Positions 1,894-56,405 of a DNA stretch of 64,000 bases are shown here, piece by piece (the stretch's first letter is position 1; each line of letters begins with the position of its first letter). This stretch comes from Balanoglossus misakiensis. Lineage: Eukaryota; Animalia; Hemichordata. The DNA is taken from the NCBI GenBank assembly GCA_040954595.2, contig CM082595.2, positions 519,690 to 583,689 of the forward strand. Direction: 5' to 3'. The position numbers and the translations under genes are program-made. A model generated the notes under the pieces. The model was not told the DNA's origin. It ran no database searches and saw only the letters and a list, made by a program, of their open reading frames with translations.

Positions 1894-4800
1894 ATGGCGG
1901 CGCCCATTGAAGACGACGACTTGCCTCCAAGGAATGACGATTTTTACTCGTTATTAAACGCACGAAAAGAGGCAAGTGTTGAGTACAGTGTTTATATAGT
2001 TTAAATTTTTAATGATAACATAAAGATCTTAATTATTGAGTGACACGCCGTATAATTCGCTGAAAACAGCGACCCTTGGTCACCGTTTGTGCACGTGCAC
2101 GATATGAATCCGTACCTATGTCAATTTCTCATACATAGTCTATTTTCTTTCAAATAGAATTTTACCTCTTATGTATGGGACTATGGGTGCTTGTTTTCCC
2201 GTCCCAATATTTGCAAAAACATGCTCAGCCTAGCAGTTAGGAGCAGCAAAGTATCATGTAGTGTATAGTGTAGTTCCAGGTTTCACTCAATTTTGCATTT
2301 TTGGAACCAAAAACACCATCCATGATACAAGCCCAGCTTGAGTATGCCTGGCTGCCGCGAAGTGTGTGTATGTGTTGGGAGGGGGGGGGGTAGAGGCATG
2401 GATCAAGATGTGGAGGATAATGTGCAGGCAGTCTTTCTTTACATTTTAGTTCACAAGGAATTATGATTACATGTGAATACAGTAAACGGGACTGAATGTC
2501 ACAATTACCCACGTAATGTTTACAGCAGACCTAAAATAACTACCCACATTCTGTTTAAAACTTTCTTGGAAAATGTAGACGTCATAGGTCATGAATATGC
2601 ATCAGGATCATATAGTTTTATGACACTACTTGTATAGTTTAGCCAAATGATCATTGTATGTTTTGCTCAAACAGGCCACCCAGGATGAGTTAAAAGCAGC
2701 CTATAGGCGAACATGTATGATCTATCATCCAGACAAACACCAAGACCCTCAGAAGAAGGAGGCCGCTGAACAGTTATTCAGCAAAGTTCAAAAAGCATAT
2801 GAAGGTATAACATACAGAATGTCTTTAATATGATATAGGTTTATCAGCACCACAGATTGAGCCACTCAGAGTATTAAACCCTTTCATCCGGGACCACCAT
2901 GATATGGTCCCAATCCATTATTTTATATGGTACATTGATGACTTACTTTTTTTCTATATTTCATGTTTGTTTTTATGTCTCAGTTCTTTCTAATCCTTCA
3001 ACAAGAACAATCTATGACATCTATGGGGTTAAAGGTCTCGAAGCTGGCTGGGACTTGATTGAAAGGACCAGAACCCCAGCCGAGATACAAGAAGAATATG
3101 AACGACTACTGAAGGAGAGAGAGGAAAGGCGTCTTCAACAGAGAACAAATCCAAAGGTGACTCAAGGATCTATGAACACTTCAAAGAGTTCTCCTCAGGA
3201 ATGTCTGATAGAGTATCGGCTAATTTGAGAAACAATACAAATAGTTGTGACGATGAGTTTCTAATCGCTTTTTAGATAATGGAAAAACCAGACATCCAGT
3301 TACTTGAAAAACTACTAGTCTTTGAAAATTTAAATATAATTCTTATTATTTGCAGGGGACCATTACTGTTGGGGTTGATGCGACCAATTTATTTGATCAT
3401 TATGAAGGTTTTGATGACTATGATGATGATAGGTAAGAGAAATCCATCCAATCGTTGATAATCTGTTGATTTGTAAACAAACAACAGGTTAGTATATTTC
3501 AAGTATCAGAACAACACGAGTCATCTATCAAGAGACACATGTCTAACCCAGCTAATATAAAAAAAAGTTTTAAAAAGATAATGTAAGAATGTTAAAAATC
3601 AGCAGCATTGTCCAATTATGCAATGTGTACCAAGTATATTATTTACCACTTTATGTGTTTGTTTATATAGGTCTATTCCTTCTGTTGAAATCAACCACAT
3701 GTCAATAACCCAGGCCATAGAAGCTCCTCTTACTATGACAGAGACTGCCACATTATCAGGACATTTACAAACAGCCAATGGTACGGGCAGTGGACAGATC
3801 TCAACATCATTGAGACATGTGATCTCCTCCAGTGGGTGGGCAGAGGTGAGATGGGGGTGAGATGCAGCCATCATGAATTTGAACTCAAAGCGAGGCCAAT
3901 TGGGAAATCCCCTCGATGTGATTGGTCAACTTTCCCCATTGGCCTCGCTTTGAGTTCAAATTCATGAGGGCGATAGACTTATGAAAAGGGTGTATTTGAT
4001 TTCCTTTAATAGCTCGATCATATCATCTATAATTTCTGTGTTTCTTTTCATTCATATGTCTAAACCTTAGTTTGAATTTGGTGCTGGGAATGGTCCCATG
4101 ATAGGAATCAAAGGCTTTAGAAATATTACCAGGAGAAGGTGAGTAATTGTAAGAGATCTAATTGGCTGTTTCTAACTCATTAGAATGTAAAATCAGTACA
4201 TTATGAGCACTGACCAAAGGTGTTCTTTGTTTTGCCGAGAGATAAGGAATTCTGAGAGAGAAATGTACAGCAACTCAACATCTGTCCATTTCAAGCTGAA
4301 CCAAATGATCATGATGACAACTTTTCTTTTCTAGTTTTGGTACATTTCAAGCTGCTTTCCATGTCACACCAAGAGGGACAATAAGACCAGGTTTTAATAC
4401 AAGTGAGTGCAAGAGGCAATTGTTATTTTATTTTGTTTGATTTTGCTTTGTTTTGTGTACATGTTTCTTTGTATCGCAGTGTTTCATCTAGATGGGGGGA
4501 TTCACCTATTGACATGCTGGCACCCCTTAGCAATTTGTCAAGGGGGGGGGGGGGAACCAGTTCCCCTTAAAATGATGTCATTTACAGTCCCCTCAAATAT
4601 TCCCTTGGTTTGGTTTCAGTGATAGCAAGACAGTTAGATCAACACACAGTTGGTTATATAACATGGAAGTGGGGTGCAGCATCCTCAATGAATACTATGC
4701 TTATACGAGACACTCCGAAAAGTCATCTTATGTTGCAGTGTCAGGTAAGAATTCTGTCACTTTTGATTCTGAGTCTTGCTTGTCTGAACAAAATCAAAAG

Positions 4801-6589
4801 GTTATCATACACTTGCTTATAACACCAAACAAGTACATTGTATAGAAACATGCCTGGCATGGAGTTCTGAATGGATTTTCTGAAGGCTTTCTCACAATCT
4901 TGCTGCAGTCACTCTCTCTATTTGATTCTTTCAACAGTTAGGAATACCTGTATCATATTTACTTGCAAGTTACTCAAGGAAGTTTGAAGAGGAAGGCAAA
5001 GCCAAGATAGCACTCAAGTAAGGCAGAAATTAGTTATTCAAACCATTGAAAAACCCATTTTTATTATTCCTACGTTGAATTAAATAAGTTTATGATGTGT
5101 TTAACTTCCATTGTTTCACAGAGCGGGTACGTTTGGTGCTACATTTGAATATGGTGGAGAGAGAAAGATATCTAGGCACAGCAGACTCGGGGCAACACTC
5201 ACTATTGGTATTCCATTAGGAGTTACTGTACGAATCAAGTAAGTACAGAGAAACCTGTTTTTATAGACACCTCGCTAATCAGGACAGATTTTTCAAGACA
5301 ATAGTTACAGTTTGAATAGAATATTACCTGTCTATAAAGGACACCTCTGTATTGAGACTAAGCCACAACAATGGTTGCATGTATTTGTGAATATCTTTTT
5401 TTCATTGACACAGCTTTCACACTTTCTTTACAGATTAAATCGTGGCAACCAGACATATAGTTTTCCAATCCATCTATCAGATGAAATCAACCCTGTAGCA
5501 ATATTTTATGGAACCATAACGCCTATCACAGCCTTCATTCTGGTGAAGGCATTAATCGTCGACCCGTATCTCAAGAGACAGAAACAGAGGTAGGAGTTCA
5601 TTTCACATTTTAAGCGTGTGTAGTGGATTACTCACAAGTTAGATATAATGTTAATAATAATAAATTATGGATTTTTGCGGACAGGGATGATAAGAAAATG
5701 AAAGAAGAAAATAAAGAAAGAATAGCAAGACAGAAAAGAGAAGCAGAGACAGAGGTAAGTATTTGTCAATCTGTGATGACTTGACAATTTTTTATTTGTG
5801 CTGTGAAAAAAATCAATTATGCATATTAGTATCAAAATTTTAACCCTTACCAAGTATGTGAATTAAATTGTTTAATATTTTTGCATAGGTGGAATTTATG
5901 CAAGAAATGTGTGAAAGGATACGAGAAATAGAAAGCCGAAAGAAAGGCCTGTTGATAGTGAAAGCCTTGTACGGAAAATTAATATCTGAGAGAGGAGAAG
6001 AAGAGATTGGTGAAGCTATCATCGATGTTACTGTCCCAATACAGTGCCAAGTCAAAGATTCTAAACTTCTTCTAACAGAAGTGTCCAAGGTGAGTTCATT
6101 ATTATGAAATCTAAACTATTAAGGAAGTTAACCTGTGACCCTATTATGGGATATACTGTGGATGGATCAACTATTGTTACTTTCCTTGCTATGGAATATT
6201 CTTTTGGAAGTATTACATTTCTTGCTTTTTTCATTGTGTTTCAGAGCTGTCTTCCAGGCTTTTATGATCCATGTGTGGGTGAAGAGAAGAGTCTACGAGT
6301 GTGTTACAGATTTCTAGAGCAACTTCATGAATGTACTGTGCTTGACAACGAATCACTCAAAATACCTAAACAATGTAAGTCAACAAATGTCATTTCTAAA
6401 CCACTGCATGCAAATTCTGTTTCCACATGATGTTGAGAAATGCAAATGTTTATTAGCATGTCACTGAGTAACTTGTTTCCCTATTTGGCCATGTTATTTG
6501 CTGCGGAAAAAGCTATGAGAGTTGGTTTCAAAATGTTTTCATGGAACACATTGTCTCTGTTCACAGCTCACAAGATAAATGAAAGCTGA
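1894..6589 (+). CDS. DNAJC11: DnaJ homolog subfamily C member 11, 15 coding exons
   Basis: Exons 1894-1971, 2675-2804, 2984-3156, 3356-3432, 3671-3845, 4071-4138, 4335-4402, 4620-4744, 4938-5017, 5122-5238, 5434-5589, 5685-5754, 5889-6089, 6245-6374, 6567-6589 join in phase. J-domain [31 protein letters not shown], then [41 protein letters not shown] and [15 protein letters not shown] are DNAJC11 signatures. Intron 1 is GC-AG. Confidence 0.97.
3871..3967. repeat. 30-bp perfect inverted repeat (hairpin or MITE) in DNAJC11 intron 5
   Basis: TCATGAATTTGAACTCAAAGCGAGGCCAAT (3871-3900) is the exact reverse complement of 3938-3967. Confidence 0.85.
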
Positions 6590-8026: not shown

Positions 8027-8107
8027 CCACTATGGTTTTGTCCAAATCCATTGTTTTCTATGGTAGAGTTCGACCTTTATAGAGGGAATTGGGGGTGAAA
8101 GGGTTAA
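8027..8107. mobile_element. Partial copy of the TTAA-flanked piggyBac-like MITE family
   Basis: CCACTATGGTTTTGTCCAAATCCATTGTTTTCTATGGTAG...GGGGTGAAAGGGTTAA is reverse-complement homologous to 35014-35107. A further partial copy lies at ~8613-8673. Confidence 0.65.
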
Positions 8108-8453
8108 AATATGGACATAGTTATGACTACATAGTTTCTAATATTATTTTATTCAAATGTTCATCTCATTCTGCTGTCCATGTCCAATACATGTGCCATA
8201 CATGACCATTTCCAACAATGATTATCGGAGTATACTGTAGTGAACTTGATACATACGTCAAAATAAACCCAAAAATAATCCGAGATATTTTAAACTGAAC
8301 AAAATTAATTACACCAAGTTAAAAGAAAATACAAGCTCTCATCCCACATTTGAGATTTTAAAAAAATCTTTTAAACTTATATTCAAATAAATACTAACTT
8401 GTTTAAAATTTCCTATTGGTTACAACTTGTCAATCTTTCCAAGGGCTACCTAA

Positions 8454-10210
8454 CTACACCGGTAATGTTTTGCCAACAGTTTTTGTCACTATTGTTGAAA
8501 AAACTTTTGTGAAGAATTTCAGTCCAGTTTGACCTCCTGGAATGTAACTAACAACATACCTGTAAGAAGAAAATACAGAAATTTATTATAAAGTTGTAAA
8601 TTCTACACAATGTTGTAAATCCATTGTTTTCTATGGTATAGTTGGACCTCTAAACAGGGAAACGGGGGTGAAAAATAACTTACCACACTAATGCAATTAT
8701 CTGTATAACAGCACTGACAACTGTAAAAATAGTACTTTTCATCTAAAAGGAAAGGAAACATTAATCAGCATTCATATAAAATTAAATTTCACATAGAATC
8801 TAATCAATGTGCCTGTGTTTCAATATTTATTGTGAAACGGTCAAATACTCACCACCATAGCAAAATATAAAGTAGCAAACATGGACCCAAGGTATGTTGT
8901 TGTAAATGGTAATCTAGATGCTGAAAAAAGGTGTTTGATGTGATTCCAAGGACCCCAGAGAAGAGAAAAACTGAAAATAAGAAAAAAGAGGCAGATTGAA
9001 ACATTAATCTTATAACTTTGTTGCTACGGTAATGCCACTAAAGTCACAATTGATACAGAAATTCAAATCTCTGTGACTGCCAATTTATAAATGCCAGCAA
9101 TACATACCTGCTGATTGTAAATACACTTCCTAGCGTATAAAGAAGTGCAAATTTTCTGGCTTTAACAAGAATGAATGGTGCAAAGAAACCAGCTACAACA
9201 AAACAAAATATTCCGGTGCAAAGACAAGCCATGAAGCCGATGATACGTTGCTTTTTTGTCTGGAAAAAGAAAAGAAAAATGCATTTTAGACTATCTATCT
9301 CAATGTGTAGTGTTCCCTACTGTCTATGAGTGTTCTTTTTGCCTCATAATACTATGTCAGTTGGGTGACACAATTGCACCACAGTCACTATATTGTAATA
9401 GAGGGGCGGTCACTGTGGTAACACATTGAATGAAATCTCAGTAATAAGGCAGTATAGCCTTCTGGTATATTTGCATTGCAACAGCTGCGGCAGTGCAGCA
9501 TATGTTGGAGACAAATCCACATAGTGAAATTAATGATATGCATTTTTCCTTTAACGTTACATGTATCCTTTTTACAAATATTGCGAGTTGAATAAATAGT
9601 TACAAGTCTAATACTTTAAGGCCCTTTTTTTCAATTACACTATGGGCTACCCTCCGTTCCCAAATGAATGTCAAATTCCAATATATGAATTTATTTTGAT
9701 GATGATCAAAGCTAAAATTCTTGAAAGTTGAAGAACAGTTTCCGGATGACGTGTTCTGCACAACGTAAACAAACCCTAGAAATCAACATGTTTACTTCAA
9801 CTTCAAGTTTTCGTGGTATCGATCGTAGACCGTTTTGTGCTAAGGTCTTTGGCTTAAAAAACGTGGCAAAAATCGGGTCGAAAACATCAATAGTACCAGC
9901 GCGTCATAAATCCGATTATGGTGTCATATCGTGCCTAATAACCGCTGGTTTCACTTGTAACGTACTACACAACTATCCAGTGTATCCATCAATGAAATCT
10001 TACCAGAGATGGACACATTGGGTCCTGTTGTGCCTGGTTGAACCAACCGTTGCCATCATCTTCAATCGTGATTTCTTCTTCAGTTTTGCTTCCGAACCAT
10101 GAGCTTATACTGTTCGTGTTGTTAGATGTCGCTTCAGTTGTTTTTGTAGAACTGCTACCTGATTTGGAGGACGAGAGGTATTCCTGTAGCTTAGCATTGA
10201 GGTTCGCCAT
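8454..10210 (-). CDS. SFT2D3: Vesicle transport protein SFT2, SFT2C/SFT2D3-type, 5 coding exons
   Basis: Exons 10210-10004, 9259-9108, 8970-8853, 8742-8684, 8559-8454. N-terminus MANLNAKLQEYL (cf. SFT2D3 MADLHRQLQEYL), LTKKQRIIGF, KARKFALLYTLGS, YVVSYIPGGQTGL and C-terminal KTLPV. Confidence 0.88.
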
Positions 10211-10730: not shown

Positions 10731-13700
10731 CTATGGATCAATGAATGACACCATAATGTAGCGTGTACCGGATACTGTTGGAAGACCTTCATGGAAATGT
10801 GTCAAGCGACCTGGATGCATAATACTATATCCAACTTCAAGTCCAACCACGCTGCAGTTGTAACGCAGAAAACGGGCACCACCTCCCTGTAAACAAATAA
10901 AATGTTACACACAATGATTTTAATTCATTCAGTGGTACACACACAAAAAACAGCAAAATGTCTTGGAATATATTTTGGGGGGTAAAATCATTCCACATAC
11001 CTGATAATCAACACCTTGTCTGTTGAGGGCGATATTAACAGTGAACACTGACGCATCGTGATGGGGGCGTAGTGATGGTTGTTCATCCGGGCGATAACGG
11101 ACCATAAAATTCATGATTGCATGTGCCTGTATGGGAGATAGAGAATTTCTCTTTGATGGAGTCCTATTTGGTCTTGAAAATCATAATTAAGGTTTCAATT
11201 GGTTTATCAACAACCACTAAACACAGAGACTTAGTTTCATACAAAATTGCTAGTGAAAATAATAAAAGTTTTAATTTCCGACATTTCTAATTCAATACAG
11301 CATACATACCGGAGAGAAATAGCCAGGGAAGACTTTTTCTTGCATAGGACAGACGTATTCTTTCAAGATGTGCAACCACTGTTTTTCAAATTCGATTTGT
11401 TTCATGTGAACATCTCTGGTCGGCACACTCTCGTATCCTCCTGAGAGTCTGGGATCCTGTAGGTTGCAGACACAATAAATATTGATCAAGCAGTATACAA
11501 TCAAATTAATTTTAAAGAGTAGCGACGGTCTTATATGTATGTGCCAAACCATAAGGGTCCTACCAAGATGGTGGCAACCATAATCTGTGTCGGAGATCAG
11601 GAAAAGACAGTTAATTGGGTGAAAAGAAGTAGACTTACTTTGTGGGAACCATCTGAAAATTGGCCAAAGCTTTCCACTTCATCGATCAGATGATTGGCAA
11701 AAGTTTCACTCATCAGTGGAAAACGGTAGACATCCGGGCATGGCTAAAGTGGATGAAATGTACATCAAGTCTTAATATGAGCATTATACTCATTGATTGA
11801 TTGCCATAGTACACAATGTTAATTGATTCAAAAGACAATAATTGCAATCAATACTCACCATGGGTAAATCATCACCTTTAAAGGCCTGATGATATAAAGG
11901 ATGTAAATATCTAGCTTCCCAATCCTGTGCAGAAAAAAATGTCTTTGTATCTCAGTAAAGTTTTCAAGTTACAAATTTTATTGTTCTGTGTGAAAGAGGG
12001 ACTAAAGAATTCATAATAAACATATTTCCAGATTAAACAGGATTCAGTATGAACTGCAGGGTCATTGTATGTTGAGTGGTTTGTGGTCGATCTTATTTTC
12101 CAAAATCAGGGCAACAAACAAATATTTTTTTACTTTGAGTGATGACAATTTACTTACCTTTTTATTGTCAAATATCTCATACATATCTGGATGTTTCCGG
12201 TGCAGATGTTTTTGAAATTTCTCATCATCGACGAGATGACCAAATTTGGCAGAATTTGTCACATACATGAAGACACCCTATATACAAATATTGAGACATG
12301 AGAACATCAATATATGATACAATATTGATACAAACTTTCATCATAGAGTGTTGACCTGAAATTGCTATTTGCCAAAAGTTGTGTGGTGCAGTGATATAAC
12401 CAATGTTGTGTGGACAATAAAGAAAATAAAAGCCAGTTAAGTATTGCACAATGATTTAGTGTCCAACCATACCTGTTCTCTGAGATGCCTGCAAAATGCC
12501 ATATCAGCATCTAATTCACCATAGGTGTATAGAGGTCGGTATTTCTCTATCACTTCACTTTTGACCAGATAGGCACCGGAAATAAAGGGTACATTCCAAA
12601 CACCTCTGCAAGAAAAGTTTTACAATTTGTTAAAGAACCACGGCTATGCATGAAAATGCCTATCTATTAAAGGACAAAGTTGCTCTCTTTTGCTGCTTGA
12701 CTTCTTGAATGTTTAAACAAGATATGGTCGAACATGCCCACATGGATTATAATTAAAATGAGATTTCTAATTCCCACAAACCTCTTAGTGGAAAACACAA
12801 TATCAACATAGTCTTCAGATCTTGCATAAAAACCTTCTTCATCTAAAGCACCCCAGAAATTACTCCAAACTTTTCCAGGTCTGACAAGCATAGCAGCTAT
12901 AACACGCCTTTTAAAACAAAATACATGGTCGGCATTAAATGATTCGGATGAATAATTTGGAGATCGAATTATACAAATTTTAAATACAGAATTCAGAATT
13001 GAAAAAAATAAAAACTCCATTTCTTACCTGTTTTGTTCAAGAAGCAATCGAAGAGTATCAGGATTGGTGAGTTGTGCGTAAGAATGCACAGAAAAAAAGT
13101 ATTCACACTTCATTGTCAGGCAGTAGTTTCTGTTAAAAATAAGGACAAGAAAGTACAAAGTGAAAAACTATTAACTAAACACTCAGTTTGATAATCATAA
13201 AGAAAAACCATAGACACCATTAACATAAATTAAACAAAATACACTTTTGTTGGTAAAAGGTTTCTATACTCACATAGCCTTGTTTTTTGCTTCCCGGTCA
13301 CTCAATAGATTCGGTGCCTGTCGTACGGAGTTGTACTCTGTTGTGTGGTTGTCTAGGAAACTGGTCACATCATCAGTATGGAAAGGTACCTAAAAAGTAA
13401 TGTCTTACAGTACTTGGCTGGAAACCCATTGCTATAGTAATTACCCATTCTCGCAAGATCTTGCAAGAGTAGGTATAAATGCACAACAATTTAAACATTA
13501 TTATTCCACAACTTTCATTGAGAATCAGCCTTAGCTACTTACTGCATTGTAGATGAAAATATCAATCTTCTTTTTAGGATAAGACAAGTTGGTGAGTCGC
13601 TGGAAAAATTCTGCGATGAAAGGAGTTGGCTGTTCCACAAAGATAGCCATCAATATGCCTGGATAATCTTTAATCTATTACAAAAAGAATGATGTTTAAT

Positions 13701-16634
13701 TACAAAGTCAGTGTTTTTGAATACAACTTGGCATCTTCTGAAATAACTCATTTATATATGCTAGACTCTGAGTCTCTGAGTGTACACTACTCTATAAGTC
13801 AATCACAAACAATAACCATTTCATGAAAGAGCTTAATGTAAAAATATAAAGTTATAAATACAGGCCTTTAACAATAACCACTGCTAAAATAAGAGCTTTA
13901 CCTGTCGATCTGCAAGACTGATCGTATCTTCCTGACACGCAAGACATCCTTTCTCTGGAGTCCAAGAATTGACAAGATAGTTCCCGAAGTGATCAAGGTG
14001 AATCTTGGCTGCACCGTTGCCATGGATAATGACTGGCACTGTACCATAGTTTTTATTCTGGAGCATAGCATTCTTGCCTTCAAATAGCAAATGGACAGTG
14101 TCTGCTAAAAAAACACAGAAATACCAAAGAATTTACAACTGTCTTTTGACTAACTTTTGTCAACATTAGTACATCTGGCTGGAACAACAATACCACAAGT
14201 TATGTAAACAATGTACAACCTGCGAACATTTCCATATTTTACCTTAATACACTACAATATATTATATTACATTACCTTTGAGTCCATTTAAATTCTGAAA
14301 TATGACTGCCAAGTTGTCTAGTTTCATGCCATATTCTTCCTGTGAATAAATTACACAAAGTTGAATAATTGCCACAAATGTAATGTGTCCTCTGCAGTGT
14401 GTCTTTGATAACAACACTAACATTTGTTATAAAACATTGTATGTACTGAAAAACTAAGACAGTTTACACAAAAGGAAACGAAAGTAGCATTTACCCGATA
14501 TTCTGGATTGACATAAATCTTTGAGTAGTAGAGTTGATCAGGTGAATTTTCTTCAACATGTCGCAGTGAAACAATCTTCCAGATCTCTGGCGCATAACCC
14601 ATGAACATTCCAGAATTGAGATAGGGAAGCCCTTTGTCTACTTTGGGATACTGGGGCTACAGAAATGATGGCAAAATGTTATTCTTGTGTGATTCATATT
14701 TTTTATAAATTTAGAAATCCATAACATACAGTTGCCAATTTCAAAGGTTATTTCAAAGCAGTTAATTCTCATGGACTATCATACAATCAGCATTCTACAT
14801 TGAACATAAGCAGAAAGATATTTGAGAGAACATGGAGACAATGTGAAATATCAATATATGTAGGACTGTGACTTACCTCCAAAGATGCATCCGGCCACAG
14901 ATAAGTTTCAGTTGAGAAAACAACTCTGGCATCCATCTTGTGAAATCTGTTCAAAATCTCTTCAGCGCCAGTGGTGAAAATCACATTGTAACTGTAGCGA
15001 CATAAGGCAAAAATCTCTCAATTAAATGTTTATGAAAATGGTGATGGGTGGAGTGGGGAGGGGTCCAGGGGAGATGGAGATGATGATGCATAAAAAAAGA
15101 ATTAATTCTTACCAATCAACAAACAATATAATAAGATTTTTATCATCTGTGTATTTTTCCATGGCATCTTTTAAAAGACCAATTTTCTGACCACCACCAA
15201 GCCACTCTTTCCCCATGCCAAGAACCTAGAAGTGATAGTGGGAAAGGGTGTGTGACAGACAGATAGACACACACACGCACACACACACGCACGCACAGAC
15301 ACACAGCATTGGGGCAAAGTAAAATGGGTGAATCATTGACATGAATAAATGCATGGGTGTAAAAATAATAGTGAGAAGGCAGGAATACTCCCTTTGACAT
15401 AGTATAGGGAAATCCATACCCCATGGTTTACCTTGGTCAACATGTGTGAATTCATTCAGATAGATCATATTTCAGATATAGTGTGTACCAGTCTAGACCT
15501 ATAGACTCTGAACTAAGTGTACATATACAATTCTTGCATAGTTCATAACAGCTCTTCTTAAAGAATGTTTGCTACTGTGGGAACAGATCCACAGTGCACA
15601 GTGTATTACATATACATTCCATCATGAGTGAGCTAGGACTAGCTGTAACAGTGTTACCCTAGCTCTGTGTAGCAACTGGGTTGTAGGTCTTTAGGGCAAG
15701 ACACACAGTTCTGCCACAAAGAGCTTATTATACCATAGATCTCACTTTATAGCAATTATATGTATAACAAATGAATTGATACAATCATAATCAGAAGAGC
15801 AATTTTTTTTAAAGTTGGTGTTTTTCTTTTGTTTCAACTTACAACTTGTTTTGAGATTTAAAAATTGAAGGGAAAAAAGACAGACATGTAGAGCTATGCA
15901 GCTTTGTTTGGCCATTTGGAGGAAAGCCCATAAAGTATGAACCAGACATGACGCCCCTTTGACAAAGATCAAAAGGTCACACTGCTAATTTATTCCTCAT
16001 GGCCAAAACATTCCATCATGATATACTTACATGTAAATTCTCTGAGAGGCCATTTCTGTCCACTGATCTTATAAAACGTTTGTAGCCATCAGTTTCTTCA
16101 GTTGCAACAGTGAAAATAATCAAATTTTCATTTCCTGTGAGAAATGTTAAATAACACATCAGCCAACGGAACTCCATATACCAGTCAATTGTGAAAAATT
16201 GTAGGCAGACATTATACTATGATTTTTTTAACAATTTGGAGTCAAGAACAAAAATCTTATCTTTATTAATTCCCGGAATGATGTTTGTAAATGGAATAAA
16301 CAAAATGAATGATTTCTTGTACTGCATTGAATCGTTGAAATAGGAGTTCAAATCCTCCTCTCAAATTATGTCAGAGTAAAGCTTTTCAACTTTGTTTGTA
16401 CTTAACTTGAAGTGTGAACAATTTGAGGTCAGTTGAGAACGCGAAAACACTCAGATGACCTCAGGCTACACTGTGGCCGCAATTGCTGACAAAGAAACAC
16501 CATCCCTTTTGTGCATTAGAATAAATCCACCTACCTTTACTGTCCTGTTCAGCACAAACAAGAGAGTTTTCAACGGTCCAAATACTGGCAAGAAGGAACA
16601 CCACAAGAAACCTACAACTCCATCCATACTCCAT
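10731..16634 (-). CDS. PLOD: PLOD-A: procollagen lysyl hydroxylase, divergent tandem copy with degenerate glycosyltransferase motifs (~728 aa, 18 exons)
   Basis: Exons 16634-16535, 16134-16031, 15225-15113, 14991-14877, 14656-14495, 14339-14276, 14101-13902, 13674-13543, 13389-13274, 13129-13028, 12907-12782, 12605-12473, 12277-12158, 11924-11859, 11743-11639, 11456-11310, 11126-11001, 10886-10731, GT-AG and in phase. Signal peptide, [45 protein letters not shown]. Confidence 0.93.
15268..15304. repeat. Imperfect (CA)n microsatellite in PLOD-A intron 2
   Basis: CACACACACGCACACACACACGCACGCACAGACACAC. Confidence 0.8.
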
Positions 16635-18376: not shown

Positions 18377-21300
18377 CTATGGATCAATGAATGACACCAT
18401 AATGTAGCGTGTACCGGATACTGTTGGAAGACCTTCATGGAAATGTGTCAAGCGACCTGGATGCATTAAACTATATCCAACTTCAAGTCCAACCACGCTG
18501 CAGTTGTAACGCAGAAAACGGGCTCCACCTCCCTGTAAACAAATACACACAACGATTAACATTTCAGTCTACAAAAATAGAATTCAATTGACTGCTTTGA
18601 TGTTTGATACTGTTACATTAGAATTGCAAAGTACAGAAACAATAAGTGAGAAATGTAACAATACCTCGTAGTCAACACCATGACGGTTGAGGGCGACATT
18701 TATAGTGAACGTTGACGCATCATGATGGGGGCGTAATGATGGCTGTTCATCTGGGCGATAACGAACCAAAAAGTTCATGATTGCATGTGCCTGCGATTGG
18801 GGAAAACCATAGTGAGATAAGAGAACTGAAATGAAAGGCAAATAACTTTATTAACAAAGCCCAGTTATCATATTTCAGATTAACAGCAGTCTTGTTTGAT
18901 ATTGTTCATTCTCTGTCCCCAATCAAACATAACAAGTAGTCTATCCAACTGGTTCAAAGGCAACTCATCTCATGATCGTACATTTCTGTGAATGTGACAA
19001 CAGTCATACAGAAGTAACAATTTCTTTTCCTACATTTTTCCTGGTGCAATGTGTGATTCAGCAAACTAACTTTACATACCTTAGAATAATAACCTGGGAA
19101 GACTTTTTCTTGCATAGGACAGACAAATTCTTTCAAGAAATGCAACCAGTGGGGTTCAAATTCGATTTGATTCATGTGAACATCTCTGGTTGGTACATTC
19201 TCGTATCCTCCAGACAGTCGAGGATCACTGTTCGAACCGTCGGAAAATTGGCCAAAGCTTTCCACTTCATCGATCAGATGTTTGGCAAAGGTTTCACTCA
19301 TCAGTGGAAAACGGTAGACATCCTGGCATGGCTGTGGATTAAATGTGTATGTTTATGTTATGTTCTGTACATGCTATAGATCATAACATGAAATTCTATG
19401 TTGAAGAACTTGGACCAGAAAAATAAATAGTCAAAAATTTTCAACAACAGTATGTGGTTCACATTTTAAAATGTAACAAATAAGACAATGCGAAATAGTT
19501 GCCTCTGCTGACATCAGGAAACTTTCTCATCATGAAAATTTCCCAGTTTGCAGTACATGTACTACTCACCATGGATAAGTCATCTGCCTGAAGGGTTTGT
19601 TGATACATTGGATGTACGTATCTGGCTTCCCATTCCTTAAAACAAAAGCACAATGGATGTTACATGTATTTACTTCAACTGTGTAGATGTCAAATTAGTA
19701 GACCCTTCCACCCCTGTATTGTATTGTAGATATCCAAGTTTACTACAGAAACAATGCATTTGGACCAAACCATGATGGTGAAAGGGTTGAAAGACACATG
19801 GAAATCTTTTTTACATTCAAAACAATATGGTAGCATTTATATCGGACATATTGACCATTACTCACCATTCTGTTGTCAAATATCTGAAACATATCTGGGT
19901 TCTTCCTGTGAAGATATTGGTGGAAATTGTCTCCATTGATGAGGTGGCCAAATCTGGCAGTGTTTGCCACATACATGAAGACACCCTACAGGACAGGATA
20001 TATGAGATAGGATATAGTTGATTCATGATCTGTGTACACAGAATGTGCTCTCACAATATACGACATACTAGTTAAGTTTTCAAGTCTTGACAGATTGACT
20101 GTATCGCCCCTACGTGGTGGAACTCAGACTAAACATACCTGTTCTCTGAGATGTCTACAAAATGCCATATCAGCATCTAATTCACCGTAGATGTAAGAAG
20201 GTCGGTGTTTCTCTATCACTTCACTTTTTAAGAGAAAGGCACTAGAAATAAAGGGTACATTCCAAACACCCCTACAAGACAGAAAAAAGAAATGCTAGTA
20301 AATGCATGTAAAATTTAGTGGATAAACTATGTACATCACAGATAATAGGAACTGTGGTTACATGTAAGATAGACTGGCAGCCATTTTTCATCAAAATTAC
20401 TGAAAGCAAATCTTAACATCCTCAGATAAATGTCAATAGATTAGTATTCAATGGTACAATTCACTGACCTCTTGTTGAACTTGACAATATCAATGTAGTC
20501 ATCGGATCTTGCATAGAACCCATCATCACCTAAAGCACCCCAGAAGTTACTCCAAAGTTTTCCTGGTCGCACGAGCACCGGCGATATCACACGTCTGTCG
20601 ATAAACAACACAAGCATGACCAATTTAGTCTTGTGAACAGTAAGACTGAATCAACCATTTTTGAAAAGATATATGAATGATAAATCAGTGAATTTAAATA
20701 AAGGAAACTGAAATTTCTACCTGTTTTGTTCAAGAAGCAATCGCAAAGTATCAGGATTGGTGAGTTGTGCGTCAGAATCGACAGAAAAGAAATATTGACA
20801 TTTCAACGTCAGGCAGTAGTTTCTGTTGAAAAAAAGGACAAGAAAAAATTAGGGAAACATTCAGTATGATTAACCACCTGTCGGTTCAATATATTGAGTA
20901 CACACACATGGTATTTTTTTATTTTTTTATTACTGGTAGGTGGTACAGCAAAAACTATTAATCACACATCAGATGTCAAATTTGCAGGAAAAAAATTGTT
21001 GTAAAGGTCAACTGTGTTGATATGTTGCTATACTCACATAGCTTTATTTTTGGCTTCATGGTCGCTTAAGCCATAGGAGTGGGGTACCTCTCGCACTGAG
21101 TTGTATTCTGTGGCGTGGTTTCCAAGGAAACTGGTCACATCATCTGCATGCATAGGTACCTGCAAAGTTTGAGGAAATAATATTATTCTATAACTTTCAA
21201 GGACTGTTTGGGGGGTTAAGTCCCATCAATGAAAATCGGTGTAAAACCAATATGGAGGCCAAACTTACTGCATTGTGGATGAAAATATCAATCTTCTTTT

Positions 21301-24300
21301 TCGGATAAGACAAGTTGGTGAGTCGCTGGAAAAATTCTGCGACGAAAGGAGTTGGTTGTTCCACAAAGATTGCCATCAATATGTCTGGATAATCTTCAGT
21401 CTAGAGGGAAAAAGTATATGCAATTGTGAAGTCAGTAATATAGAATACCATAAAACTTCCAATGAAGTAATAAATCCTGTCCTTTAACAATGCACCACTA
21501 CAAAAATAAAAGAGCTTTACCTGTCGATCTGCAAGATTGATCGTATCTTCCTGACACGCAAGACATCCTTTCTCTGGAGTCCAAGAATTGACAAGATAGT
21601 TCCCGAAGTGATCAAGGTGAATCTTGGCCGCACCGTTGCCATGGATAACGGCAGGCACTGTGCCGTATTCCCGGTTTTGTAACATGCTGTTGTGTCCTTC
21701 AAATCTCAGGGTGACGGTATCTGATCAAAGATGGAAGAAAAGCACATCTATATTTAACTCTTTCACCCCCAGTTTCCTCTATAGAGGTCCAGGTTTACCA
21801 TCTCTGTTGAAAGCTGTTTGACTCTACAGCAGAGTCGCTGTTCATATCTGCCGTACATGTGCATCCCATAAAATCGCCATTAGAACAATGACATCTCCGA
21901 CCCTGACACAGATTACAAGTACTATCACATCACTAATAGGACTTGTTATCTGTTCAGACACTTAACTTTATTAGAGATAGTATGCCACTTTCAAAGTCTC
22001 ATTTTTTTCACAATTGATGACTTTCCCAATCTGATTTCAGAGTGTCCAGTTATTTTCCCTTCTACTCACCTTGGACTCCATTTAGATTTTGAAATATGAT
22101 TGCAAGATTATCCAGTTTCATCTGATATTCTTCCTGTAAATACAGAATATTGACAGCATACAGTTAAAACTCTAGTGAAGGCAGTTAAATTTATTATTCA
22201 AAACTACCTGCATTCTTTCATGGCATCATACTGAGTGATATTTATTCACACACCATCAAAGAAATTTTGCCTTACAATACAAACATGACCAGCTTGGGTC
22301 CTCTGACTACACCAAATACTGCACCTCAAGCGGTATATTGATTAAACATACAAGCCCGCATCATGCTGGTACCAGAATTGTTGCTAAAAATCAATTACCA
22401 GAGCCTAGCTCAAAAACTCAAAAGAGAAACCAACATTGGTACTGCAACTGAAAAAGCGCCATGTGGCCCCTGCACTGTAATGTAGAAAAATAAATATGGA
22501 AAACAAATTTTGCTTACCCTCAATTGTGGATTCAAATAGATCTGTGTATAATAGAGTTGATCATCTCCCTGGTTGTCAATATCTCTGTGCGACACAATCT
22601 TCCAGATCTCAGGCGCATAACCCATGAACAATCCAGAATTCAGATACGGAAGCCCTCTATCAATTTTAGGGTACTGGTCCTATTAAGTAAAGCAAAGAAT
22701 ATAATTTGTAACAACTGACTAAATCCAGTAATGATCGAAAACACACAAATTATTATCATATTTGATCGTGATATCTATGTTGAAATGAAGGGATATTACT
22801 TACAGCTAATGACCTGTCAGGCCACAGATAGATTTCAGCAGAGAAGACAACCCGGGCGTCTAGGACTTCAAATCTTTTCAAAATCTCATCAGCACTTGCA
22901 GTGAAAACAACATCATAACTATGGAAACGTAAAATAAGTTTACATGTACAATGTTTATCAGTAATACAATAATGATGATAATTATGCTGCCGAAAATTCA
23001 AATTTGCATCCACCAATAGATTGACCTTCCTAGCATGAAGTAAAAAGTCATTTTAGGTATTGAGAACTGATACAGTGATAAGTGCCCTTTGAAGAGTATT
23101 CCCCTATCCAGACATTGGCATGTTTTAAAAATAACTACAGGACATACAATGGAATTGTTCTTTAGAAAATTCTTTGCAAGTTATTTGATATTTTAATGCA
23201 GCTTATTTGCAGTAATTAGTCCGGATAAGCTGTACAAGAATGCAAAAAAGTAGACGTAGTCCTTAATACCTGTCAACAAACATGACAATGAGATCTTTGT
23301 CATCTTTGTATTTTTCCATGGCGTCTCGGAGAAATTTGATTTTCTGTCCACCACCTGTGTATCTCATCATGTCTCCACCCAGCCATTCTTCACCCATGCC
23401 GAGTACCTACGGTGGGGAGGGGGAAAGACATTTTAAGATACTGCCAGAAAGATCACACTTTGCATGAAAACTAAAAAAGATTGATATACATGTACAATAC
23501 TGGAGGGGATATGATGTTATATTCATGGAAAATAGCTTCACACATTTGCCTTGACATCTGACAAGTATAGTCAGCCTGATGTACTTACATGTAAATATTC
23601 TGAAAGGCCATTTCTGTCCACTGATCTGATAAAACGTTTGTATCCATCAGTTTCTTCAGTTGCAACAGTGAAGATCATCAGTTTTTCACTTTCTGAAAGA
23701 AATATTGATATAATATCAAACTTGGTCCACTTCTCCCTGATTTCTACATCCTGGTATTTTGCAGATCAGTCTGAGATGTGACAAACACTGTGATACTGTA
23801 AGAAAGCACCCTGTTTAGAGATTTAAATTTCAAAGGAAATCTACAAATAAAGAAAGAAGCCAAACAATTAATGACTGCATTCAAACCGTGGATAATTACA
23901 AACCTTTACTGGAAAGGCCGGGTGTTTAGCTCACCCTTCAACAAAAATTTGCATCTTATTTTGTTAGCAAAGAAAGAGAAGATCGCGGCTGAGAGTTACC
24001 AATGAATAAGCAAAAACAGTGACACAGCGCTAGTACAATTATTGCAGCTATAACACACACTACCAGCACAGCTAGAAAACACTGGATGCATTTTTCTTGC
24101 TATTTTTGGGAATGTACGTAGGATGGACTACAAATATGGGCTATCCATACATGTAGATGATTATTTGAGTGCTATGCAAGGACTATAAATCAAGCATACC
24201 AAGGGTTGTCAGGACGAGAACAGAGAAGGTGCCATTAAAAGTAGTAGTGAATTGACAAAAATTTGAATCTATTTCTACTATTCTAGCTTTATTGTTAAAC

Positions 24301-25634
24301 AGTAGCATGTAGTGAGTGGCCAATGACAACATCACTGGGGCACTAGAATTTCTCAATTATTTTCTAGACCTCTGATTACGTTTAAAAATTTATCTTCCAT
24401 TGAGGTTTGGTTTCGTGTGGCATTATCCTTGAACTATCTAAACAAGGAATGAAAGGCCAAGATGGAACTTCAAGGCTGTGGGCTGGTCAACTTAAATTTA
24501 GTTGAAAACCATGTGACCTTAAAATGGCCTTTAGTAAAAGGATAGTGACTTTGACAGACCATAAACATACCTATTGTAATAATGGAGTTTTTTCATATGT
24601 AAATATAGGTGTTGGCTATTGTTCATTTCATTTGTCAATAAATAACAATAATTGTTACACATACTATTATACAATTCTCACTGAGCATGCAGAATAAGAC
24701 TGAAGTTTATTCAAAGAAGAAAAATTCTGAAATATGACCAAAAGTTACAGTACACTAAATGTCCCTTTAAACCTCACAGCACAAACTTGGTTGTGAACTG
24801 AAACTTACACTACTTCATTTCAATAATGACTGTTGTATTGACATTGTGAAATCGTAAAACGCGGCCCTTTTGTAGAGTAAAAGACGTGATATGACAATGG
24901 CATGTGATCAAATCATAAAGTTGAATGCCGTATGCCTGCCCTGCGGATATCCCAGCCATTCAAAACAAACTCTGTCGACGAGACTTCCTGACTTGGGACG
25001 TGCAAGCGTGTGTGTCCGCCGGGCACACACATACAGCACCGGCCGATCGTATGCTGCTTGGGCACTAAAGTCAAGCGACGTGACAATTTGCACTCTTTGA
25101 GAAAACACCTTAGCTTTATCACTTGTCATATTACTTTGATCACGATTGATGCTTTCTTGATGAAAGTCTAAACAATACTGCGATCAGCGTCCGTCGAGAC
25201 AGCCACGTAGGCAGGCGTATTGAATTTCGGAGGGGGGTCACTTGACCCGGTACCCCCGGGGGTTCTCCAATTCACCAGCTGAACTTTTGGTGATCTGGCC
25301 AAAAGTCGCCTTGAATAATTTTCTCTTTGCTCGGATTTGCCGTCTGAGTTTGCAACCATGCAACCAGACAGTCAACGATTACGAAAATTCCGAAAGAAGT
25401 CTCTCGATCGTTGGTCCTGGTTTACTTTAGAGAAGTAGTCAACAATATTCACAGTCAACGATATTCTGCAAATCGCGTCCCTGCTTCAGATACATCTTAC
25501 ACATGTATATAACAATTAATATAATTACTCTTACCTTCTGATTCTGCACAAATCAGCGACTTTTCCGCAACCAAAATAAAGATGAGAAAGAGAACTGCTA
25601 GAAAGTTCAAACTGAGAATGCCTTGACTCGCCAT
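18377..25634 (-). CDS. PLOD: PLOD-B: multifunctional lysyl hydroxylase/glycosyltransferase, LH3-like (~738 aa, 17 exons)
   Basis: Exons 25634-25535, 23692-23589, 23406-23270, 22918-22804, 22679-22518, 22133-22070, 21720-21521, 21400-21269, 21159-21038, 20822-20721, 20594-20469, 20271-20139, 19985-19866, 19635-19570, 19331-19080, 18790-18665, 18532-18377 sum to 2217 nt. Signal peptide [30 protein letters not shown]; intact [57 protein letters not shown]. Confidence 0.95.
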
Positions 25635-36543: not shown

Positions 36544-45361
<8,818 letters not shown>

Positions 45362-49874: not shown

Positions 49875-51481
49875 ATGTCGGTTTTTGTACTTTACGATTT
49901 AAATCTTACATTGGATTTTATCATGGTTCACAAAATAGCTTCAGTTGGATTTCGGGTTGCTGTGTTTGTGTCTACTGTCATCATTCTACTGATTGTCGTC
50001 CAAATGCAGATCTATTCCAAGAGAGAGGATATATCGCCTCTTATTCTCACCAGTGGTTTTGGAAAAGATAGTGCCATCCCTTCAGGGGTGGCATTGCAGC
50101 AAGTATCGCCGACGGAGCTCCTCCTTGAAGCGAAAGAGGATGGTGGTCAAAATACAGAACGAACTGCAAAGAATGATGTGGTCGAGTTGCCACCCTTTAT
50201 ATACAAGCAAGACAACCAACTACTACACGAAGTTCGGAAAATTAACAACTCTAATCTGCGATTTGATGGTTTTATTCCACATTGGTTTGATAAAAAGGAT
50301 GTCCTCAGAATGGAATTGATGTCACATGGCAAACTATCAAGCGTTCATTCGTACGAAACTAAGACTCGTCTGAAGAAGATGATCTTTGAGGACGGCAGTC
50401 GACCAAACATCGATAGTTTTGAGAAATGTGCGGACCAATGTGCAATGCGTAAAGGACCCCGCGACATCTATGAAGTATATTCCTTTCATGTAGATCGAGT
50501 TCTCGGACTGAACCGTTCCCTCCCTGCCATCGCTCGACGTCTCATCGATGAAAATGACAGGGAAACAATCTATCCTCTTGTTTGGTGGGATATCAATGTT
50601 CTCCAGCCTGGAAACAGGGAACAAAGCTCCATGTTCCTGTCCTGGACGGACTTCCAAAGAGTTCTCGCTTCTCGCTGTTTTGCCAGGGATAATATGGATG
50701 AATCGATGCGTAATAGCAAATGCACGACAAAAATAAGACACATTGAATGGGGCAGATTAGCACTATACGACTTTCTTTTACAAGTAGGTTTTCCTTTTTA
50801 TTCTGTGTTAAATTTGAAGGTGCTAGAGCAAGGCTCATCCAATTCATGCATTTTAATTCATGGTTTATAAAATAGTATCAAAATATATGTGCCATCGCTT
50901 GATGTGACCTGTTCTCTTTCATTTATAGAATCATGATCGAATCGACAGAAGTTGCTGTGGTTACGACCAAGAGGAGGGCGAAAGATGTTTTAGAGATGAC
51001 AGAAATGCCATTAACAAACAGACGTGCAAAAACGTCAATCTACAATTTCTCTGTAATATATTTATCCGAAAATACGATGAAAGTCGTCTTGTTTTCATCG
51101 ACAATCCATTTTATCTGAGAAGAAGCGCAGACCATTTGAATTACAGGCTTCTGGAAGGAATTAAAGAGTGAGTTTGTGACGATTTTCTTATGACAATCAG
51201 TCAGTAAAGTAACTATGAGATCACATTCTGAATAATTTGAAATAAACTCGATTTTGTTTGTGTCATTTACTGACAGGATTCCTGAATATCCGATATCAGT
51301 TTTAAAATCAGGAAAGTTTCACGATATGATGATGCAGTCCTTGTACATTGATAAAGTGTTCTGGGAAGACCAAGGCGGAAAGCTCTTCATGGAAAAGCTC
51401 ATTAACGTTACTGAAACACGTGCTCAGAAGTTGATGATGTATATAGAGAAGATGGGTATCATCCTCGTTCAAGACTACTGA
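49875..51481 (+). CDS. GASK1: Golgi-associated kinase 1 / FAM198-like type II membrane protein, 3 exons
   Basis: Exons 49875 (or 49923)-50783, 50929-51167, 51277-51481. N-terminal TM helix, [64 protein letters not shown] and SLYIDKVFWEDQGG match FAM198A/B motifs. Confidence 0.88.
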
Positions 51482-54018: not shown

Positions 54019-55721
54019 CAAATCACTGGAGGTGAAGAGTTCGAGATGACTTCGCCGCGAAATAAAAGGTTTGAGAAAGTTCCACTGATGCAGGTCTGAC
54101 TGGGTTGTGAGCACTCGGTCGTTGGAATAACTTTCCTGTTAGTCGTAGATCACATTTGAAGTAATTACCGATCAACTTAAGACATATGTACCGGAACAAA
54201 TTGTAAGTATCCACGATTCCAGCGTTCAAAGATAATTCATAAAATCAGATCAAAGATGAAGTGCGTCTTCACACCATCTTCGTTCCGTGGAACTCCAAAC
54301 ACAACGGGCTTTAGACGCACTTGACAGTTGGAATTGTACAATTCTGATTCGGATGATAAAACAGGACAATAAAAATGACCGTGTTCATAAAACTGGTCCG
54401 GCAATGTACATATTGTATTTCTTTGTGGTTCTTCTTTTACTTAAAACCCCGCGAGACATGAAGAAGACAATGACAAGACAATAAAAGTGATGTTTTGATT
54501 TGTATTCAGATCCCCTGCGCTGAGTGCCATCCCTCTCTTGAAACCTAGAACCTTTCAACTCTGAAATTTGTCATTCACCAATGTACGGACAGCGTTGAAG
54601 CTTTTATTTCGCGTCATTATCATAACATAGCCTGAAAGATGAGCTTCAAGTGGGCGACTGTGGAGCGCCAGCAAGCGTCAGGATCTTCAGGTATAAGTGT
54701 ATAAAAGATACTAGTAGTAGTTTAATTGTGTAAAGTTTTTTTCTGCAATTTGGCAGTTGTGGTATATTTGCATCACACGGTCGATAGCACAGGCTTCGTT
54801 GTAGTTTGAACAAGGTACGGGAACTAAGGCAACGCCCACATAAAAGTAGAGAATTGCAACTATTCACGTGAAATGTCGAGTTTCTTTTCTGTGAGTGGGT
54901 TACTAGGTCATACATTCCTGAGAACCAGGCCCCTGGCACGCACGGAAACTGTAAAATGATTGAAACTCACAAAACACTTCAGTTGAAAGATTACATGTCG
55001 ACAGAGATTCTTTTCCTCTGACATTGTGATAATCTGCACAGGTCGTCCTAACGAAAATACGTCAACGATGAAACCATGAAAACGCTCCTGATTTAAAGTA
55101 ACTTTTCGACAGCTCTCCACTCCTCTTCGTGACCTGAGCATTGCGGACAGCCCATGGTCAAGTCTATGATAACAAAGACAGTTTGTCCACGGCCACGCGT
55201 ATTTATTATATTACAACCGAAGAAAGGCAAGTAACCTTTTTCCAACAGGAAAGTGTACATTTGCAATCTGTGGGTGCTTTGAACAGACGTGGTTGTGGAT
55301 TGAACTAAGAGGTCTCCTTTCAAATTTCCGATCGTGACCCAACGGCTTTCAACAACATGACATGTAAGACTATTAAAGTTTGTATCACATGACCAGCGCA
55401 TGAAACCCAGCTTTGTCGAGAACGAGGCTAATAAGTTGAGCACCTAAACAGATCAGAGACAGGCTCTGTTGGAGAAGGATCCTTCTGACCATCGCTGCAG
55501 GGCTAGATATCCACAGAGGTGTTGGACGCCCCCCGCAAACTGCCGAACTTGACTATGATCGTCTGCTTGTATTGATGGAAGGAGGCGTACTCTGTATGGT
55601 GTGCATGTCTGGTTTCACGTAACCCCAACTGGAAAAAAATATAATTTCACTGTCGTACTCTACAAGGCGTACTCTACCCGTACAGGTGTACACACACTAA
55701 AGGAGTTTGCTCAATATAATA

Positions 55722-56169
55722 ATGATGTGTGACCTAATTCGTATACCATTTATTTTGGCCGTGGCGGTTTTGGCCATTTGGACCGTGCCAACTTTGCAAC
55801 AATCACAGGCATGCTCGGAAAAAACCATGGAACAACGCGAGGAAGAAGCAAATGTTGTCTTGTCTGGTTTCATAAACCAGGTGTACAGAAAACCTCACAG
55901 CACTATGTATTCGTGTGAAGTTCGCGTTGTACGGGTTTTCAAGGGAGACACTGTTTTGAACGGTAACATGGATGGACATTCCCCGTTCACCCCAGCAATG
56001 CTCATGGTCGATGGTTTTGGAGACCCCACCATTTGTGAGAACACTGTCACCCGGGGAGACACTAGGCTTTTTCTTCTGGAAAGACAAAAAGATGGAATGC
56101 TTAAGTTGAATTCGAGTGTTGTTCGCATAACTATGAACAACTTAGACCGGGCGGAAGCCGCTGTCTCCG
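55722..56169 (+). CDS. AGRN: Agrin, first coding exon (signal peptide + NtA domain); gene continues beyond the window
   Basis: Signal peptide, then ACSEKTMEQREEEANVVLSG...YSCEVRVVRVFKG...VDGFGDPTICENTVTRGDTRLFLL...LNSSVVRITMNNL, matching the agrin NtA domain. Phase-1 donor G|GTAAGT at 56170. A stand-alone NtA protein cannot be excluded without downstream exons. Confidence 0.85.
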
Positions 56170-56405
56170 GTAAGTGGTCGTGCGAAATGAAATCGACATG
56201 GTCGAAATATACAAGGGGAGGGGGGGGGGGGGTTAATTTCAATGGAGCTGTTTGAGGGCATATTCTGTACCTATTCTTTGGGGGGTTCTGTTGAAAACTT
56301 AAACAATGGTGCATTCTCTCTGTCTTGGTGCTACATTCATTATGTCATAGTACAGTGTATCCCCAAACTTCCAAAGCTCCACACTTTCTGCCGTGATAAA
56401 CATAA

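Follow-up and report, generated by a model that had tools for sequence, protein, structure and literature searches.

A tandem duplicate of an LH3-like PLOD gene in the acorn worm Balanoglossus misakiensis with a probably inactive glucosyltransferase site and a retained hydroxylase site

One of two neighboring PLOD genes in B. misakiensis, PLOD-A, is probably a glucosyltransferase-dead but hydroxylase-competent copy of its LH3-like neighbor PLOD-B: an intact, spliced tandem duplicate, a reading to which, by analogy with human LH3, we give a probability of about 70%. Both genes lie on the minus strand of the window (the whole 64,000-nucleotide stretch analysed here) and were located by a six-frame motif scan and by reading of the sequence; the gene models were built on GT..AG boundaries. 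PLOD-A (10731..16634) has 18 coding exons for 728 aa, with a degraded glucosyltransferase (GT) site, all introns GT..AG and the frame open; PLOD-B (18377..25634) has 17 coding exons for 738 aa, with the GT and hydroxylase (LH) sites all intact. Neither model contains an internal stop, and the proteins are 78% identical. PLOD-A begins with an exon homologous to exon 1 of PLOD-B (16535..16634), which supplies a start codon and a predicted signal peptide with its hydrophobic core. The extra exon of PLOD-A is due to an intron (A intron 15, 11457..11638) that the intact copy lacks (compare 19080-19331), such that exon 15 of PLOD-B corresponds to exons 15 and 16 of PLOD-A.

The lesions are concrete. 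Exon 3 of PLOD-A (15113..15225) is 113 nt long and that of PLOD-B (23270..23406), with its full glycoloop, 137 nt; the difference is an in-frame 24-nt deletion, internal to the exon and flanked by short GGTGG repeats, that turns a 15-residue segment of PLOD-B (letters not shown) into WLGGGQK. In LH3 numbering, taken from alignment with LH3, eight residues of the G72-G87 loop are missing, the V80 position among them, and S113C falls across the junction with the next exon. Exon 4 (14877..14991) carries D115N (codon 14987-14985) and A140T; FVDSYD of PLOD-B becomes FVDCYN. Exon 5 (14495..14656) carries D190P (codon 14542-14540), a GAT to CCT replacement requiring two changes, within the altered NQGDDQLYY segment; GTRY is common to both copies. 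Other GT residues are retained: D112, Y114, D191, Q192, W75, K89, E141, W145, N165, H253 and N255. The pair, the deletion, the two exon lengths and the residue changes had been listed in an earlier note on this DNA, and all are present in the gene models. That note had also counted the Mn2+ ligands D112/D115 and the catalytic pair D190/D191 as degraded, which holds for D115 and D190, whereas D112 and D191 survive. Set against an LH3-type bifunctional enzyme, PLOD-A falls short three times over: in the full glycoloop with W75 and V80, which PLOD-B possesses (eight residues deleted, W75 kept); in the DxxD pair with H253 (one aspartate replaced, H253 kept); and in the poly-Asp pair (the first aspartate replaced).

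Two further points concern the same region and its neighbor. Rescue of the glycoloop by an alternative exon is ruled out, as no other exon in the window supplies the missing 24-mer, and no second close copy of it was found there. The accessory domain carries D392H/D394Y in exon 10 (13028..13129), which the earlier note had missed. This double change was considered as a second catalytic loss and then downgraded, because position 394 is variable (D in 27/163 PLODs) and the accessory domain of LH3 is described as silent (PMC6082870, PMC11897130).

The comparison set consisted of PLODs of 660-860 aa (163/184 fetched), and is similarity-biased and insect-rich. Within it D115 is present in 159/163 proteins; the column of D190 has D in 161/163 and P in none; and the loop from W75 to K89 measures 14-16 residues in 155/163, versus 7 in PLOD-A. 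Among the eight with a shorter loop, the six examined comprised three from tapeworms, one unnamed and two models that start inside the loop. Given this conservation, the GT lesions of PLOD-A are not chance.

The other end of the protein has fared differently. PLOD-A belongs to the family along its length: it is 71% identical over 728 columns to the Ptychodera PLOD, which aligns end-to-end with LH3. The hydroxylase ligands had been claimed as kept, and they are: the Fe2+ triad H667/D669/H719 and the 2-oxoglutarate residues R729 and Y656 [ligands of human LH3 as given in PMC6082870] are retained, with N676, R599, D597, D611, H613 and L715. The sole change among the checked hydroxylase and dimer residues is T672V, in the dimer cavity; it and P418A (B numbering) are near-invariant sites also changed in PLOD-A. 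These retentions do not all carry the same weight. Exon 18 (10731..10886), with L715, H719 and R729, matches PLOD-B at 153/156 nt and is a gene-conversion tract, so that retention of H719 and R729 is not independent evidence; H667, D669, Y656 and R599 fall outside recent tracts, the first three in exon 17 (11001..11126; dS 0.48), where T672V also lies.

A separate observation concerns exon 15, where PLOD-A has His at LH3 position 595 (11643-11645) and PLOD-B and other enteropneusts have Asn. His595 occurs in 17/163 other PLODs, the vertebrate LH3 rows checked among them; in PLOD-A it completes a second, gating Fe2+ site known from human LH3 (PMC6082870).

Sequencing runs X1, X2 and X3 represent one recorded sample and may themselves be the source of the window. 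An X1 DNA contig (14000-15245) carries the deletion, D115N and D190P unchanged; an X2 DNA contig (14582-15245) carries the first two unchanged. Over exons 3-5 the variants in that X2 contig (three SNPs and three indels) are all intronic; elsewhere, 5/10 exonic variant codons alter the residue, in a small and mixed sample. Contigs from X3 skip four introns of PLOD-A exactly (13386/13540, 13674/13902, 14338/14494 and 14656/14877) with 0-1 mismatches to PLOD-A, and one of them carries D190P. They are read as a low-depth spliced transcript of PLOD-A, from a single run labelled 'DNA?', at contig depth 2-5; coverage is little over the coding exons of PLOD-B and nil over exon 3 of PLOD-A, and these contigs cannot rank the two genes. 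A processed retrocopy is an unlikely source of the joints, as they are absent from X1 and X2.

PLOD-A is under purifying selection. Over 425 unconverted codons dS is 0.97; had the A branch evolved neutrally, about 32 stops should have arisen, and none is seen. If dS is divided equally between the two branches, dN/dS for the A branch is roughly 0.22-0.24 in each of the three domains. The usual marks of a pseudogene are a disrupted frame, neutral rates and lack of spliced transcript; PLOD-A has an open frame, intact over its 18 exons as first reported, dN/dS of about 0.2 and four spliced introns. The earlier note had named neutrality, absence of expression and uncollapsed haplotypes as possible undoings of its proposal; the missing stops, the X3 joints and the divergence of the two copies speak against each.

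Rates do not single out the transferase. The proposed check by per-domain dN/dS came out flat, at 0.19/0.23/0.22 for the GT, accessory (AC) and LH domains of the A/B pair. Private residue changes number 71 in PLOD-A versus 29 in PLOD-B (p=3e-5), and the A branch is 2.9 times as long as the B branch in the GT part and 2.3 times in unconverted AC+LH: the acceleration is gene-wide. The share of A-only changes is likewise no different between GT and LH (28/12 versus 17/8, p=1.0). Gene-wide acceleration with flat dN/dS looks like general relaxation.

Selectivity appears instead at the positions that the family rarely changes, and there gene conversion has to be taken into account. Conversion between the two genes is strong, in either direction, and blurs the last exon: pS varies among exons (permutation p=0.0002), and two stretches, of 91 and 87 nt, are identical where introns are otherwise mostly unalignable, the 91-nt one in a tract that covers the 3' half of exon 7 and runs on into the adjoining intron (13846..14048). 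Outside the tracts, PLOD-A breaks 6/33 positions conserved at ≥95% in the GT domain (the deletion counted once) versus 0/39 in LH (Fisher p=0.007); at a 90% cut-off the counts are 6/40 versus 1/54 (p=0.039). With tracts and B-shared changes left in, the whole-domain test gives p=0.087 (95%) and 0.034 (90%); the boundaries of the tracts were drawn by eye, after that test. The claim of 'selective' GT degradation accordingly stands for near-invariant positions and fails for overall rates. The longest unconverted stretch is that from exon 3 to mid-exon 7 (exons 9, 11, 13 and 14 are unconverted too). A divergence peak is the described signature of selected differences maintained under gene conversion (PMC3924837); exons 3 to mid-7 fit it, though indels alone can also block conversion.

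The same facts allow a less generous account, which we consider unlikely: PLOD-A is a dispensable copy in slow decay, in which the GT site happens to break first while conversion from PLOD-B keeps the hydroxylase looking intact. Conversion is clear, and H719 and R729 lie within a tract; the excess of private changes in PLOD-A, and three amino-acid changes in exon 10 of one A allele, point the same way. However, PLOD-A shows neither a stop nor a frameshift, although neutrality predicts about 32 stops, and it has gathered at least four GT mutations with its frame intact; the unconverted LH exons have a rough dN/dS of 0.22 with none of 39 invariant sites broken, H667 and D669 needing no recent help from PLOD-B; and the transcripts are spliced.

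The argument that the GT site is dead, as opposed to merely altered, is drawn from mutagenesis of human LH3. There V80K or V80G, W75A, D190A or D190S, and D191A each leave no detectable glucosyltransferase (Glc-T) activity, with hydroxylation unchanged; S178D, the reverse change in LH1, rescues that enzyme (both PMC10342707). D115A strongly impairs Glc-T (PMC11897130), and the glycoloop becomes ordered on UDP and stabilises it (PMC6082870). PLOD-A carries its own D115N, D190P and loop deletion, different from the mutants of the literature, and their effect is read across from LH3. As three independent hits fall at LH3-critical positions, PLOD-A has likely lost all or nearly all of its Glc-T activity, and its GT site is very likely crippled. 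The shortened loop would fail to close over UDP-glucose; N115 would weaken binding of Mn2+ and the diphosphate; P190 would remove the acid that activates the donor; the separate C-terminal hydroxylase domain would go on working.

Retention of D112, H253, W75, Y114, K89, E141 and D191 leaves room for a residual or altered activity, and another account builds on this: PLOD-A would keep a changed transferase, with a different donor or acceptor, or a low activity like that of LH1, its site being opened up by the shortened loop. The residues that remain include two of the three Mn2+ ligands, the two aromatics that stack on UDP, and K89, E141, W145, N165, D191 and Q192; purifying selection acts on the GT domain; and human LH1, with Ser at the position of 190, holds about a tenth of LH3 activity (PMC10342707). 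Set against this, a single change at any of the three sites cripples LH3, where the loop is required to stabilise UDP; H253 and N255 sit at the edge of a conversion tract; and similar lesions in tapeworms have proceeded to wholesale decay of the domain. We hold a changed transferase to be improbable.

Partnership offers a third account. The interface residues known from the LH3 dimer (PMC11897130, PMC6082870) are the same in the two copies: L715, F639, Y642, F673, D565 and R695. PLOD-A might act mainly by heterodimerising with PLOD-B through the shared L715 interface, dampening glucosylation per hydroxylation event; T672V sits in the interface cavity, however, and the identity of exon 18 may only reflect conversion, and we find this very improbable. 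A second set of contacts is also largely shared: at the positions reported for LH3 to touch COLGALT1 (PMC11897130), PLOD-A equals PLOD-B at 229, 231, 241, 264, 265, 446 and 452, the exceptions being 226 and 230. As these residues are mostly matched, galactosylation downstream of PLOD-A may be preserved.

That the two genes are haplotypes left uncollapsed, or a misassembly, can hardly be entertained. None of the listed contigs reaches across the full interval from PLOD-A to PLOD-B, and adjacency rests on the assembly of the window; but the proteins are 78% identical, dS is close to 1, and the introns cannot be aligned and differ in number, against an allelic difference within PLOD-A of about 1%. 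A second allele of PLOD-A itself is moreover present in X1, at half depth.

Over 13012-13120, in the half-depth X1 contig and in an X3 contig, this second allele retains H392/Y394, whereas the 3' end of its exon 10 shows B-like bases; it also has a loose end resembling intron 10 of PLOD-B, and may be a segregating conversion tract.

Best matches to exon 15 of PLOD-B, by identity, are those of Ptychodera flava (80%), Glandiceps talaboti (79%) and Saccoglossus kowalevskii (74%); over full length PLOD-A is 71% and PLOD-B 77% identical to the Ptychodera protein. In a 29-row tree the two copies are sisters (0.99) within enteropneusts and have Ptychodera as their neighbor, while vertebrate PLOD1 and LH3 group elsewhere (no PLOD2 row was included), as a lineage-specific duplication would predict. 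Unconverted columns alone give a bootstrap of 82 for the pair (64 for the GT part). It is likely, though not firm, on these sequences that the duplication postdates the split from Ptychodera. Each of three annotated enteropneusts has one PLOD cluster, with the caveat that annotations can miss copies. A search with exon 5 of PLOD-A returned only Ptychodera and Saccoglossus PLODs (2 matches/3 candidates), both with the D190 acid, and no orthologue of PLOD-A; no close A-like relative appeared among 331 proteins with a BLAST match (the best 120 of 1779 for the profile, the best 150 of 4896 for representatives). Among the sampled enteropneusts, PLOD-A seems restricted to a single lineage. No report of a GT-dead PLOD in invertebrates or hemichordates was found in the open-access literature, supplements aside; the consulted parts of PMC13382579 and PMC5120351 hold nothing on such an enzyme in invertebrates.

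DNAJC11, an SFT2/Got1 gene, a G-protein beta subunit, FAM198 and agrin lie in the window at about 2900-6500, 8450-10210, 43500-45050, 49900-50900 and 55700-56250, respectively; human 1p36 carries DNAJC11, GNB1, AGRN and PLOD1, and this suggests an old linkage group. Introns and UTRs of the window also contain short, dispersed repeats at which contig depth is very high, at about 8027-8110, 8617-8670, 11564-11629, 19749-19801 and 21753-21801.

If PLOD-A is a hydroxylase with a dead transferase, a division of labor can be sketched. PLOD-B would keep the essential glucosylation of collagen IV, which that collagen is known to need (PMC7619536, PMC3044864), and PLOD-A would add hydroxylase capacity; collagen handled by PLOD-A would carry Hyl or Gal-Hyl and not Glc-Gal-Hyl, unless PLOD-B finishes the same chains. 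Its GT and accessory domains would stay constrained as a scaffold for folding and for docking of collagen and COLGALT. Enteropneusts have collagenous gill bars and a collagenous proboscis skeleton (PMC13554239, the consulted part of which does not mention PLOD), a plausible putative place for the use of PLOD-A.

A far broader version can be framed, and we think it rather doubtful: that uncoupling of hydroxylation from glucosylation has been repeated in animals by one route (8-residue loop deletion, D115N and loss of D190, in the acorn worm and in a frog PLOD1); that PLOD-A has become a specialist hydroxylase serving fibrillar collagen in the gill bars and proboscis skeleton, so that the vertebrate division of labor between LH1 and LH3 was replayed independently; and that selection holds the GT exons apart from PLOD-B against conversion.

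What PLOD-A brings is not a new kind of enzyme but a variant of a known one. If the hydroxylase-only reading is true, nature has carried out a loss-of-function test of the LH3 glycoloop, and a vertebrate-like split into glucosylating and hydroxylating PLODs can arise again in a non-vertebrate deuterostome with collagenous skeletal elements. The pair, 78% identical and with a handful of differing sites, is a compact system in which to ask why producers of collagen should favor hydroxylysine that bears no glucose, and whether the GT and accessory domains do something other than catalysis.

Known PLODs provide the frame for these statements. Human LH3/PLOD3, dPlod and LET-268 share with both copies the GT-AC-LH layout, the signal peptide, all the Fe2+/2-oxoglutarate ligands and the dimer residues; fly and worm have one PLOD (PMC7619536, PMC3044864). 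PLOD-B equals human LH3 at every GT site checked; PLOD-A lacks eight glycoloop residues, D115 and D190, and sits beside an intact copy. Invertebrate duplicates, apparently adjacent, occur also in Opisthorchis and Clonorchis, as pairs with consecutive locus tags; but both PLODs of O. felineus retain all 10 core GT and four LH residues checked, unlike PLOD-A.

Tapeworm PLODs (Spirometra, Sparganum, Schistocephalus and Mesocestoides; P0047, P0063, P0172, P0201/P0334) resemble PLOD-A in a degraded GT domain with HxD..H..R intact, but are far more eroded: W75, Y114, D115, E141 and H253 are gone, which raises the question whether these species glucosylate collagen at all. GT decay with intact hydroxylase ligands is found also in the unnamed proteins P0065, P0070, P0189, P0198 and P0208; 24/147 new representatives could be scored in both domains, some of them likely viral or poorly aligned. 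The models of PLOD1 from the frog Pyxicephalus adspersus (P0191/P0332) have, like PLOD-A, a 7-residue loop from W75 to K89 and N at 115; they have D112E/D115N, W145Y and the Ser of LH1, and with several exons missing may be incomplete or degenerate.

A parallel in kind is that of vertebrate LH1 and LH2: paralogs with the hydroxylase intact and the GT site weakened. LH1 lacks the D190 acid (it has Ser178) and differs at V80 (PMC10342707). The parallel drawn at the outset with the split between LH1/LH2 and LH3 survives as to independent origin, since PLOD-A groups with PLOD-B inside enteropneusts; it needs amendment as to the nature of the split. Human LH1 and LH2b retain some measurable Glc-T activity (PMC10342707, PMC12279948); the vertebrate split is therefore one of degree, and the lesions of PLOD-A go further.
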